Source: Euglena gracilis (Eukaryota). Taken from it: DNA of 64,000 nucleotides. Positions within the stretch are counted from its first letter, which is position 1. Every line of letters begins with the position of its first letter. This document shows positions 3,120 through 21,400 of this stretch, in pieces. The position numbers and the translations under genes were made by a program. Where the stretch lies: NCBI GenBank assembly GCA_039621445.1, contig CP154954.1, forward strand, positions 17,514,589 to 17,578,588. The letters run 5' to 3'. The notes under the pieces are model-generated. The model was given only the letters and a program-made list of their open reading frames with translations. It did no database searches and was not told where the DNA came from.

Positions 3120-3427
3120 GAGAGGAGGTGAGTGTCAACATTCCTGGTGGCGAGGAGTACCCTGAATGTGATGATGTGGGTTTGACAGAGGATGCGATCC
3201 GCATTATCCAGGACTTTGTTTTGGGCAACATCCAGGGCAGGATGAAGCACTTTCCTGCTCTTTTTCATCTACTGCTTTAACCAGCCCTGACAGTGGTCAT
3301 TTGCGACTAACTGCTGAACAGGTCGCTGAGGTGATGCGGGATGTGGATGGAAATGAGCGAGAAGAGTCTTTGTACTATGCAAAAATGGTCCTTGATGTCT
3401 GGAGGATGCACAATCCCCATTTGGAAG
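3120..3427 (+). CDS. Domain repeat 1 (exons 3120-3229 + 3295-3427): GEEVSVNIPGGEEYPECDDVGLTEDAIRIIQDFVLGN/GHLRLTAEQVAEVMRDVDGNEREESLYYAKMVLDVWRMHNPHLE
   Basis: Acceptor ctctcAG at 3119 and donor G|GTTTG at 3428. Clear similarity to repeats 3 and 4 (GLTEDAIRIIQDFV vs GLTDDAIRIIREFV). Confidence 0.8.
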
Positions 3428-18400: not shown

Positions 18401-21400
18401 GTGTGTGTGTGTGTGTGTGTGTGTGCGTGTGTGTGTGTGTGTGTGTGTGTGCGCGCGCGCGCGCGCGTGTGTGGATGTGTGTGTTTGTATTTTTTCTCTC
18501 TGACTGTCTTCCATTCCCAATTTCAATTCTGTCCTCAGTGCCACCAGCAGCACGCGAAGTGCCAGTTGGAGTGATCCAAAAGGATACCCCAACCCCAGCC
18601 ACCATTGCTCTCCCAGGTGTCACCAGCTGCATCCTGAATCCTCCTTGTCTTCTTACCCCTGCTCTTCCTGATTCCGAGCTAATTCCGAGCTAATTTTGCT
18701 TTTTGCAGCACGGGTTGACCCCCCCACTTCCCGGGTGGGGTTGACCTCCTCTCCCCTCCAGGCTTTCTTGTACCACTGACCACCCCCACCAGGTTTTCCC
18801 GTATGGGTAGATATTTCAAGGCACTTGGGGATCCCCCCCATCCCACAATTGTTGTGTTTTTTTTTATTGACACTTCTGATTGAGTATTGCAAGATAGTTT
18901 GCGATGTTTTTTCTCGAACAAGTATTCAAAGGGATGCATTTCCCCGCAATTCATGCTGTCCTGAAGTTGATTGTACCCACGCATTTCTGGCAGTCAACGA
19001 TGGGTTTATCTGTTTTCTGTTTCACCAAACAGGAGGGGCAACGTTGGTTATTCCTCTGGAGTCCGACTACCCATCTTTTGACCGGTCTGGCTTGACAGAC
19101 GATGCTATTCGCATCATCCGGGAGTTTGTAACTGATACGGGATCATGCTGTTGCTGGGATTGTGTTTCACCCCCCCCCAAATAATGACCAGGTTTTATTG
19201 TTTAAAACAATTATTTCCCCAAAAAAGGGTTTAAGGTGTTTTCAAAGGTTTTTTTATAAAGGTTTTGTTTATTTTTTTAAGAAAAAACAATCTTCCAAGG
19301 GCCGTCCAAGGACGATCCAGACATCGAACAGGGGTCCGAAATCAAGAGTTGAAAAACGCATGTTTTTTGTTTTGAGTTGATAGAGAATGCTTCGTTTTGT
19401 GCTTTTTTGCAGTTTCAATTTTGGGCACCGGGTTCGACCTCACCCTTGGGGGGGGGGATCAGCCAGCAACCTTTTTTCAGGCAGCCCAAGATTTCCAGCT
19501 TGTGGGTTCACCCCCCTCTCCCCCAATTGGTTATTGAGCAATGCCCTGCCCCTCACACGTTTGCCGTTGCTGAGCTACAGCATGGGTCAGATCCCTTGGC
19601 ATAACTCCGGAACTGGTTGCTGCCCAGATGGTCGATTTCATGGGCAACACCAGCCCAGAGTCTTTATCCATCGCGGCCTCCGTGCTGGCTGTCTGGAGAT
19701 CCCGGAATCCCTCGCTGCCTTTGACATCAGGTGCAACCGGCCCCGGAATGTGGAAGCGGGGCCGAAAATGAAAAAGTGGTTGGCCTGGCGCCGAAGGCGC
19801 CGGAAATTTTTTGGATTTTTTCTTGAGACTTTTTGTCAAATATTCATTGCCTCCTCCTCATCATTCAAGAGTGGCCGAACCCCCCCCCCCCCCCGGGGGT
19901 AAAGCGACTGACTGGTTTTTTTTTGAAAAGTGACTCACGGGTTTTTTTCAGAGTGGAAAGTGCCCCCCCTCCCCCCCCCCCTTGCGGGGTTGCTAAGCAA
20001 TGGTATGGTCCGGACCATACCATTACTCAACACCTGTCCCACCCCACCCCCCGTGGGGGTGACTGACTGGTTTTTTTTCAGAGCGACTGACTGTTTTTCT
20101 GGCCAAGAACCCCCCCCCCCCCAGGTGGCTAGGCCTGAAAAATGAAAAAGTGGCTGGCCTGGCGCCAAAGGCACCGGAATTTTTTTGTATTTTTTGAGAC
20201 TTTTTTGGGAAATTTTCATTGCCTGATTTTTTGAGACTGTTTGGGAAATTTTCATTGCCTCCTCCCGGGGGGGTGAAGTGACTGACTGGTTTTTTTTGGC
20301 AAAAAGTGACTGACTGGTTTTTTCAGAGTGGAAAGTGACCCCCTCCCCCCCCCCCGGGGGGGGGGTCGCTAAGCAATGGCATGGTTTGGACTGGGAGTCC
20401 AGACATACCATCCAGACTTCCAGGGAGTACCCCCAAAGGCCAAATCCTGTGGGGGGGAGAGGGGGCCAGCCAGCCCAAATTTCCTAACCTCTGACCTGGA
20501 CCCCCCCGGGTCACTAAGCGACACCCTGGGGTGTGGATCCGGGGTCTGGTTTTGTGTTCCGGCACAAAGTGCGGGAATTTTTTTGGGAAACGCTTTCAAA
20601 TGACCTTTTTTTTTGGCGGGAACACCCCTGTGTCTTCCAAAGAAGCCTGTGTGAAAGGTTTACCCATATTACAGAAGGAAAGGCCAGAACAAAGAGGCTT
20701 TCTTTTCCTCAGCATTTTAATGGGTTCTTGATTTTTTTGCCAAGTTGTGGTGGTTTGTTTTCTTTTTGACCCTGCAAGAGCATGTCAGTCTCCCCAAAAC
20801 TGCGTGCATTTCTCCTGCAACATCAGATCGCAATTAACCCCCCCCCAAATATGCCCCGGGGTGCCCGAAGTCCTGGCAGGGGGGGGGGTGGGGGGCAGCA
20901 CCCCATTGCTCGAAATTGGACGCTCACAGGGGGGGGGGTTATTTGGGGTGAGGGTGCAGTACATTGCAATTGTTTCCAAATTGCCCACCTCATCACACCC
21001 AGCAATTTTTTTTGAAAGTTGCATTTTTTTATTTTTGCATTTTCAACATTTGCATTTTTCAGGCATATTTTTTTTTGATGAAGCTAATGCTCCGAGGGGG
21101 TTGGATTTTGAGGTAGGCAGTGCTCTAGCCCCCCCCCCCCCAGAAATGAGCCATTTTCAAGGAACAGGCAGCTTGCTCAGCAGGCACCAGGGCCCAAAAC
21201 CGACCCCCCTGGGGGGACCCCATAGTACAAGGCCCCCCCCCCCCCCCCGCACCCTCCCCCCGCACCCCCAGGGCTGGTAAAAAAAAAGCCTGGTCCAAAC
21301 CATTCCATTGCTTAAGGTGTGTCCAACCCCCTCTCCGGGGATGGTTTTTTTTTTCTGAGCGATTTGGTTCGGGCTCCAGACCCTGGGGTGGATCAGCCAG

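Follow-up and report, generated by a model that had tools for sequence, protein, structure and literature searches.

The window described here is a stretch of 64,000 nt of Euglena gracilis DNA (contig CP154954.1) with one gene, whose exons are separated by conventional GT–AG introns and by four nonconventional (NC) introns, named I1 to I4. All four NC introns carry a terminal inverted repeat (TIR) with its outer limits at +4 and −6—leaving spacers of 3 and 5 nt—and the GT–AG introns of the same gene host transposable elements of the miniature inverted-repeat kind (MITEs) with CAGG ends and 8-bp target-site duplications. Excision with these spacers would remove such a MITE from an exon together with one copy of its duplication. 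The origin of NC introns from such MITEs is given a probability of roughly 0.5 as the overall best explanation.

The gene and its nonconventional introns

A single gene was found in the window, at 3119–21786; it is of Euglena gracilis type, and its 5′ half is what the window contains. The protein P0001 (EukProt EG_transcript_826, 973 aa) is 99% identical to the translation of exon 6370–6696. Its residues 30–547 are distributed by tblastn over 11 exons within 3119–21786; residues 1–29 and all residues past 547 fall outside the window. P0001 features four internal repeat units of ~82 aa each, which align gap-free across the intron positions, and each unit carries one NC intron. When P0001 and 11 open reading frames (ORFs) of the window were scanned against Pfam, 0/12 gave a family match, and no transposase is among them.

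RNA and DNA mapping covered positions 2000–11600 and drew on the contig sets X1 and X4, the raw RNA run X21, and the DNA set X20; X1 and X4, which have no RNA label on record, were taken as RNA from their behaviour. Eight joints—three of NC and five of GT–AG introns—are present in X1, X4, and X21, and 0/8 occur in X20. The GT–AG introns defined by these joints are 3428–6218, 6270–6370, 6698–8596, 9502–10374, and 10417–10830. Farther downstream, RNA contigs pass from 11446 to the exon at 18539, making 11447–18538 a single GT–AG intron of 7.1 kb. The window sequence disagrees with the RNA contigs, with the DNA run, and with the majority of raw reads at several exon positions (10856–10934, 11437, 11439, and 6235), and P0001 departs from it in three residues (K/Q in exon 6371–6697, V/A, and G/S). 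Given these mismatches, the window sequence is taken to be not the transcribed copy itself but a different allele, a different strain's version, or a close paralogue of it.

Table 1. Coordinates of the first exon, the NC introns, and the MITEs with their duplications
Feature	Positions	Strand	Sequence or structure	Evidence or remark
Exon, P0001 residues 30–66, first half of repeat unit U1	3119–3229	+		RNA contigs and reads; tblastn
NC intron I1, 65 nt	3230–3294	+	ATC + CAGGGC...GCCCTG hairpin + ACAGT	Joint 3229>3295 in X1, X4, and 110 raw X21 reads; absent from X20
8-bp target-site duplication, left copy	6846–6853		TCCCCAAG	Sequence
MITE, 637 bp	6854–7490		Ends CAGGGGTTTTTTTTTT... / ...TCTTAAAGAACCCCCTG	Inside conventional intron 6698–8596
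8-bp target-site duplication, right copy	7491–7498		TCCCCAAG	Sequence
Second T-run MITE	8153–8394		Ends CAGGCTGTTTTTTTTT... / ...TCTTAAAAAGAAGCCTG; flanks CCATTTAT / CATTTTAT	6/8 flank identity; 7/7 if one T was lost
NC intron I2, 662 nt	8761–9422	+	GCA + AAGGACAGGG...CCCTGTCCTT + GGGTC	Joint 8760>9423 in X1, X4, and 61 raw X21 reads; absent from X20
NC intron I3, 367 nt	10970–11336	+	GGC + CAGGG...CCCTG + CCCTG	Joint 10969>11337 in X1, X4, and 38 raw X21 reads; absent from X20
MITE-like interior of I3	11025–11331		5′ end CAGGGTTTTTTTTGTC of T-run type; flanks GGGGGGGG / CCCTGGGC without duplication	Repeat comparison, depth
Third T-run MITE	17647–17952		TIR 13/14; flanks CCCCCGCC / CCCCCCCC	7/8 flank identity, low complexity; inside conventional intron 11447–18538
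NC intron I4, 449 nt	19141–19589	+	GAT + CATGCTGT.GCT... / ...AGC.ACAGCATG + GGTCA	Junction from protein only

The borders of the NC introns are neither GT–AG nor GC–AG, as judged by RNA joints for three of the four and by the protein for I4. I1 (borders AT..GT) has a junction with a slide of 0 and no direct repeat; its helix CAGGGC.GG.T.AAGCA is paired at ~14 of 18 positions and is present in the minimum-energy fold. I2 (GC..TC, slide 1) is closed by a perfect terminal helix of 10/10 bp and has AAG/CTT at +4/−8, with an inner CAGGG at +9 and a CCCTG that ends at −11. I3 (GG..TG, slide 6) has CAGGG at +4, a helix lengthened via a bulge in the fold (fold z = −4.98), and the 6-nt direct repeat GGCCAG at 10970–10975 and 11337–11342. 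I4 (slide 4) features the 4-nt direct repeat GATC, a helix CATGCTGT.GCT paired at 11/12, and CAT/ATG at +4/−8; its region lies outside the RNA mapping, and the junction is read from P0001, which continues as ...FVTDTGSLGITPE... (TDTGSLGITPE) across it. The downstream exon begins with G in four of four cases, in keeping with a purine rule.

A preliminary description of this stretch, made from the letters alone, had given three NC introns a CAGGG near +4 and a CCCTG ending at −6. This stands for I1 and I3, whose RNA joints fall exactly at the predicted 3230–3294 and 10970–11336. It fails for I2, which had been predicted at 8766–9417 and extends 5 nt further out on each side. The code-conforming inner CAG/CTG sites of I2 at 8766/9417 are present and remain unused in the RNA. 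The cuts of I2 follow the base of the helix and not the CAG motif; as a natural exception, I2 indicates that cut sites track the helix base.

The general architecture is that of euglenid NC introns as described by Milanowski et al. (2014, 2016) and Nomura et al. (2025): non-GT–AG borders, pairing of +4..+6 with −8..−6, spacers of 3 and 5 nt, and a purine start, here in 4/4. A splicing code N3-CDG...CH'G-N5-6|R, in which the length of the spacers is fixed and their sequence is free, was defined by knock-in, and in this assay NC introns were reported to splice at a foreign exon site (PMC12501133). The geometry of 3 nt, helix, and 5 nt that the preliminary description had proposed is found in all four introns here and also in this code. 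The code was found in 61.2% of NC introns (PMC12501133) and fits two of the four here (I1 and I3, with CAG/CTG); I2 and I4 deviate, and I2 in addition bypasses its conforming inner sites. At positions 1–3 of the downstream exon, a purine, A (43/55), and C (30/55) are reported, and a purine preference is described at both cut sites (PMC4770533). NC introns are the majority class in Euglena agilis, with 71.8% of introns, and 84.4% of all introns of this species can slide on short direct repeats (PMC12501133).

The placement of the NC introns within the repeat units bears on their age. In the repeat-unit alignment, I1 and I4, which have no sequence in common, cut a single glycine codon at points 1 nt from each other, and I2 and I3 lie 18 and 10 residues downstream of this codon, which gives three distinct positions among the four aligned units. 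The positions of the NC introns differ between paralogous units, whereas the GT–AG introns that separate one unit from the next keep to the pattern of the repeats. The four NC introns probably are old introns at no fewer than three positions. Excised NC introns are described as circles in a 2024 review (PMC11282704); no back-joints are among the matches listed in the RNA mapping of 2000–11600, which was not aimed at intron circles.

MITEs with 8-bp duplications in the same gene

The MITEs of this gene belong to a family with inverted ends of the form CAGGGGTTTTTTT.../...TCTTAAAAA..CCCTG, in which the CAGGG or CAGGC of the 5′ end is followed by a run of T. Within positions 1–22,500, five such 5′ ends occur, namely at 6854, 8153, 11025, 16008, and 17647, and three of them have the matching 3′ end (..TCTTAAAAA..CCTG). 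The resulting three complete T-run MITEs all lie within GT–AG introns and show flank identities of 8/8, 7/8, and 6/8. Inside, they are made up of runs of G, runs of C, and a GCGCC-TTCG-GGCGC core of the kind that is typical for Euglena repeats in the window.

The MITE at 6854–7490 carries the perfect 8-bp duplication that the preliminary description had reported: TCCCCAAG is identical on both sides (8/8) and does not extend in either direction. It reads TCCCC|AAG, so that an exonic copy would satisfy N3-CAG...CTG-N5|R including the purine. The DNA depth over 6815–7456 amounts to 126,000–153,000 compared with ~35 in single-copy parts, and because of this depth the family is put at thousands of copies. 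A separate inner MITE at 6895–7372, with perfect 14/14 ends and flanks of 6/8, was considered and ruled out, as the inverted repeat continues outside it.

The association of the duplication with CAGG ends was assessed by a scan of CAG..CTG pairs with a spacing of 40–1500 bp and inverted ends matching in 10/14 or more (n = 121), and by five offset controls. Flanks of at least 6/8 occur in 6/121 pairs compared with 0, 1, 0, 0, and 2 in the controls, and flanks of at least 7/8 in 2/121 compared with 0 in each of the five. The 8-bp duplication flush with CAGG ends is a real property of the T-run MITE family. A generic scan for exact duplications with inverted ends yielded signal equal to noise at every duplication length from 4 to 10 (10 vs 9 at 8 bp), owing to G/C runs and tandem copies. 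A scan restricted to CAGGG/CCCTG pairs (874 pairs) was excluded from the statistics for contamination by satellite CCCTG; one of its control offsets had three 7/8 pairs. A metagenome scan with the 21-nt MITE-end pattern gave one match, on a bacterial contig, which is attributed to chance.

For the T-run MITEs, the transposon superfamilies hAT and Merlin, or another one, come into question. Families of hAT generate 8-bp duplications and have YARNG ends (PMC3014272), and CAGGG or CAGGC fits this terminal motif at 5/5 T-run 5′ ends. For the target, nTnnnnAn is reported for Hermes (PMC10368747) and GTNCGNAC for hobo (PMC3276498); in the duplications of the T-run MITEs, A is found at position 7 in 2/3 and T at position 2 in 0/3, with three copies only. 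The T-run MITEs thus resemble Ds-type non-autonomous hAT elements in the exact 8-bp duplication, the CAGGG end, and the short imperfect inverted ends, but differ from them in that no cognate transposase is known and nTnnnnAn is not evident in the three copies. That they are specifically hAT elements, as the preliminary description had it, is unlikely: the duplication and the YARNG end agree with the assignment, and Merlin also makes 8-bp duplications in E. gracilis (PMC8101967). The 5′ end of I1 at 3233–3248, CAGGGCAGGATGAAGC, contains GGATGAA as does the Ac/Ds end C/TAGGGATGAAA (PMC3260210), a likeness too short to weigh.

An assignment outside hAT, which would make the T-run MITEs non-autonomous companions of Merlin elements or of a further superfamily with 8-bp duplications, would leave the route from MITE to intron intact. 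The DNA transposons reported in E. gracilis include two Merlin families with 8-bp duplications (PMC8101967), and Merlin elements make duplications of 8 or 9 bp, which the flanks of 8/8, 7/8, and 6/8 match. In addition, no paper was found that reports a hAT transposase in Euglena, and the Pfam scan of P0001 and the 11 ORFs is equally silent. A conserved terminal GG is described for Merlin inverted repeats (PMC8101967), whereas the T-run MITEs begin with CAGG directly after the exact duplication; this separation is made by description and not by Euglena Merlin TIR sequences. The CAGGG end moreover agrees with YARNG (PMC3014272) and with the Ac/Ds end (PMC3260210). A non-hAT identity combined with the scarless route is judged decidedly unlikely.

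A proposed scarless route and its rivals

The proposed route starts from machinery that cuts 3 nt ahead of a terminal helix and 5 nt behind it, irrespective of the spacer sequence, and thereby removes the helix plus 3 plus 5 nt—the element and 8 nt. For such machinery, an exonic MITE that has CAG..CTG ends and is bordered by an 8-bp duplication would be a ready substrate and would leave with exactly one duplication copy, since 3 + 5 = 8 and the published code fixes the spacer lengths. Removal would restore the target, and the MITE would be born as a scarless intron; the MITE at 6854–7490 would meet the full code. The two cuts, offset by 2 nt on the stem, would leave the intron hairpin with a 3′ overhang of 2 nt, which is the mark of an RNase III-type enzyme, and such an enzyme has already been named as a candidate for NC intron excision (PMC12621601). 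In this scheme, the R-A-C of the downstream exon would correspond by analogy to positions 6–8 of nTnnnnAn and of GTNCGNAC, the motifs targeted by hAT. A tentative extension of the route is that NC splicing is RNA-level excision tuned to a class of CAGG-ended, hAT-like MITEs, which still abound in the genome, and that the conserved Y|R-A-C is a transposase target footprint (nTnnnnAC) and not a splicing signal.

The footprint of such an origin was sought by comparing the 8 nt before with the 8 nt after the helix in the four introns of this window at a match probability of 0.25. Flank identity amounts to 2/8, 3/8, 4/8, and 3/8 for I1 to I4, in total 12/32 (p = 0.08). Its two parts behave differently: the 5-nt half matches in 4/20, at chance level, and the 3-nt half in 8/12 (p = 0.003). 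This agrees with the preliminary description, which had found no match in the 5-nt half, neither half matching in I1, and the pairs GGC/GGC at 10970 and GAT/GAT at 19141; the latter two are even longer than described, namely the GGCCAG and GATC repeats. The probabilities, ~2e-4 for the former (I3) and ~4e-3 for the latter (I4), put the length of both repeats beyond chance.

The relation of the introns to the repeats of the window is confined to I3 and to intron ends. The segment 11249–11314 of I3 is 80% similar to 7412–7473 of the MITE at 6854–7490, and the interior of I3 is high copy (depth ~33,000 in the bin 10988–11308). Within the window, I3 is the only NC intron with a high-copy interior and its ends are not high copy; I1, I2, and I4 have no relatives among the repeats of the window. 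The two outermost ends of I3 are base-paired to one another. The simplest reading of I3 is an older hairpin intron with a nested MITE fragment. The 8-mer CAGGGCAG/CTGCCCTG occurs eight times in 18.7 kb compared with ~0.6 expected (at 3233, 4165, 4216, 4250, 6895, 7365, 10828, and 11329), at two NC intron ends, five repeat ends, and one exon start; the I1 end CAGGGCAGG and the last 8 nt of I3, CTGCCCTG, have it in common with the five repeat ends.

A further likeness was noted between I1 and the repeat end at 4172. The ends at 3233 and 4172 share a perfect 9-nt inverted CAGGGCAGG, possibly by chance, and the 8 nt before the I1 helix (GCAACATC) match the 8 nt after the repeat end (GCAACAGC) in 7/8. 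The pair 3233/4172 was ruled out as a single element, which would enclose the conserved exon 3295–3427.

Several observations weigh against an origin of these introns from MITEs of the resident type. An 8-nt duplication is present in 0/4 NC introns of the window in the helix-anchored comparison, and the excess in the 3-nt half is in part the purine preference known at both cut sites. In I3 and I4, the repeats are confined to the 3-nt side and continue into the helix (by CAG and C, respectively), which is not what a decayed duplication directly abutting the element predicts. As for I2, the 5 nt outside its CAGGG/CCCTG are inverted and not direct, so that the hairpin end there is AAGGACAGGG. CAG/CTG is absent from the helix base in two of the four introns, and where it occurs it is itself a required splicing signal (PMC12501133), so that the likeness to MITE ends could be convergent. 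In I3, the MITE-type 5′ end at 11025 sits 52 nt inward from the intron border and lacks a duplication, and the DNA depth is single-copy at the first 18 nt and near single-copy at the last 28 nt. The cut of I1 and I4 in the same codon, 1 nt apart, fits one old intron better than two insertions. One of the three joints that reads could check, that of I2, differs from its prediction, a result named beforehand as refuting. On the side of the MITEs, there are only three complete copies, one with low-complexity flanks and one in need of an indel, and the hAT label draws only on the 8-bp duplication and the YARNG-type end. Old age would excuse the absence of a footprint in the four introns.

The same points can be assembled into an account without transposons, in which the NC introns are old hairpin introns whose excision enzyme requires CAG/CTG and the 3/5 spacing. 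The MITEs would then reside in introns without any kinship to NC introns, the likeness of their CAGG ends and 8-bp duplication to the intron geometry would be accidental, and the junction repeats would express the Y|R preference. This combination of coincidence and function is somewhat unlikely. The functional requirement for CAG/CTG and for the spacer lengths (PMC12501133) speaks for it, as do the proposal of an RNase III plus a ligase for NC introns (PMC12621601)—an RNase III-type cut yields exactly the 2-nt 3′ overhang implied by the 3/5 offset—the chance-level 5-nt half, the two helix bases without CAG/CTG, and the dissimilarity of I1, I2, and I4 to every repeat of the window. It does not accommodate the repeats of I3 and I4, which are far above chance and exceed a purine preference, the 8-nt repeats reported for a recently gained intron (PMC4770533), the high-copy MITE relative within I3, or the 8-mer CAGGGCAG common to intron ends and repeat ends.

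The recently gained intron just mentioned is gapC intron 4 of E. agilis ACOI 323, a strain-specific intron whose 8-nt direct repeats are longer than those of the other introns studied (PMC4770533); by repeat length, it fits the scarless route. The authors who found these repeats proposed a different source, the repair of staggered double-strand breaks with filler DNA, by which junction repeats would be fill-in products and not transposase footprints (PMC4770533). The varying repeat lengths here (0, 1, 4, and 6 nt) agree with break repair, but the inverted ends are left unexplained by it, as are the genuine MITEs of this gene, which share those ends and are bordered by an exact 8-bp duplication, and we consider it very improbable as the source of the NC introns. 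For the origin from MITEs, the claim of the preliminary description that the geometry of a MITE with an 8-bp duplication is the route to NC introns is supported in part, by the arithmetic, by the MITEs in the same gene, and by the published 8-nt-repeat intron, and it is not supported by the four introns themselves, of which none has the duplication. The scarless route is a plausible, testable refinement of the published hypothesis of a MITE origin, to which this window gives no positive footprint, and it probably is one source of NC introns.

Neighbouring repeats and the meaning of the proposed route

The remainder of the window is rich in repeats. A 77-bp satellite at 12038–15776 (48.2 copies, 94% identity, 3.7 kb) lies within the GT–AG intron 11447–18538, and palindromic repeats of the GTCGACCGACTAGTCGGTCGAC type border it on either side in inverted orientation (~11640–11960 and ~15810–15950); the satellite and its flanking repeats may form one large foldback element. 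A microsatellite of ~130 bp of CT, GT, and GC dinucleotides (18350–18480) is situated just upstream of the exon at 18539. Upstream of the exons in the window, a foldback of ~1.1 kb at 207–1291 has arms of 181 nt (87%) and 41 nt (95%) and is built of GTCGCTAGCGAC palindromes and G/C runs. The 514-bp element at 1486–1999 features 29-nt inverted ends (93%), GTACAGTCCCTGGGCGTAAAT..., with CAG at positions 4–6 of both ends; no 8-bp duplication was seen at it. Large tandem arrays of two families occupy ~40 kb at 22,000–62,500 and contain no ORF with a Pfam match. One family, with a period of ~973/1775 bp, extends over 22–38.5 kb and recurs in opposite orientation at ~41.5–45 kb; the other, with a period of 891–897 bp, extends over 45–62.5 kb. 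GC skew is strong in the array region and changes sign near 40 kb. As the next exon of the gene after 21786 lies outside the window, the arrays may sit inside an intron.

A MITE origin of NC introns was proposed in 2014 (PMC3935182). The 2024 review calls CAG/CTG a TIR and describes repeats resembling target-site duplications as frequent at the junctions (PMC11282704). No paper was found that links the 3 + 5 spacing to an 8-bp duplication or to hAT in the literature on Euglena with hAT, target-site duplication, transposase, or introners; the idea of a MITE origin with duplication-like repeats is already in print, and the 3 + 5 = 8 and hAT link is in no paper found. The closest parallel is given by the introners of Micromonas, Aureococcus, and others, which are described as transposons with short TIRs that become introns and whose duplication helps exact removal (PMC11282704). 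It is the spliceosome that takes introners out, at GT/AG sites that they bring along or co-opt, whereas the Euglena route would use a helix-measuring, probably non-spliceosomal machinery without a splice-site dinucleotide.

With the relation 3 + 5 = 8, a "MITE-like origin" that had been vague becomes a prediction in numbers, and the window contributes MITEs that have fitting ends, are bordered by an exact 8-bp duplication, and share one gene with NC introns. If the tentative extension of the route is true, every exonic insertion of such a MITE would be born as a scarless intron, and this would explain why ~70% of Euglena introns are NC.

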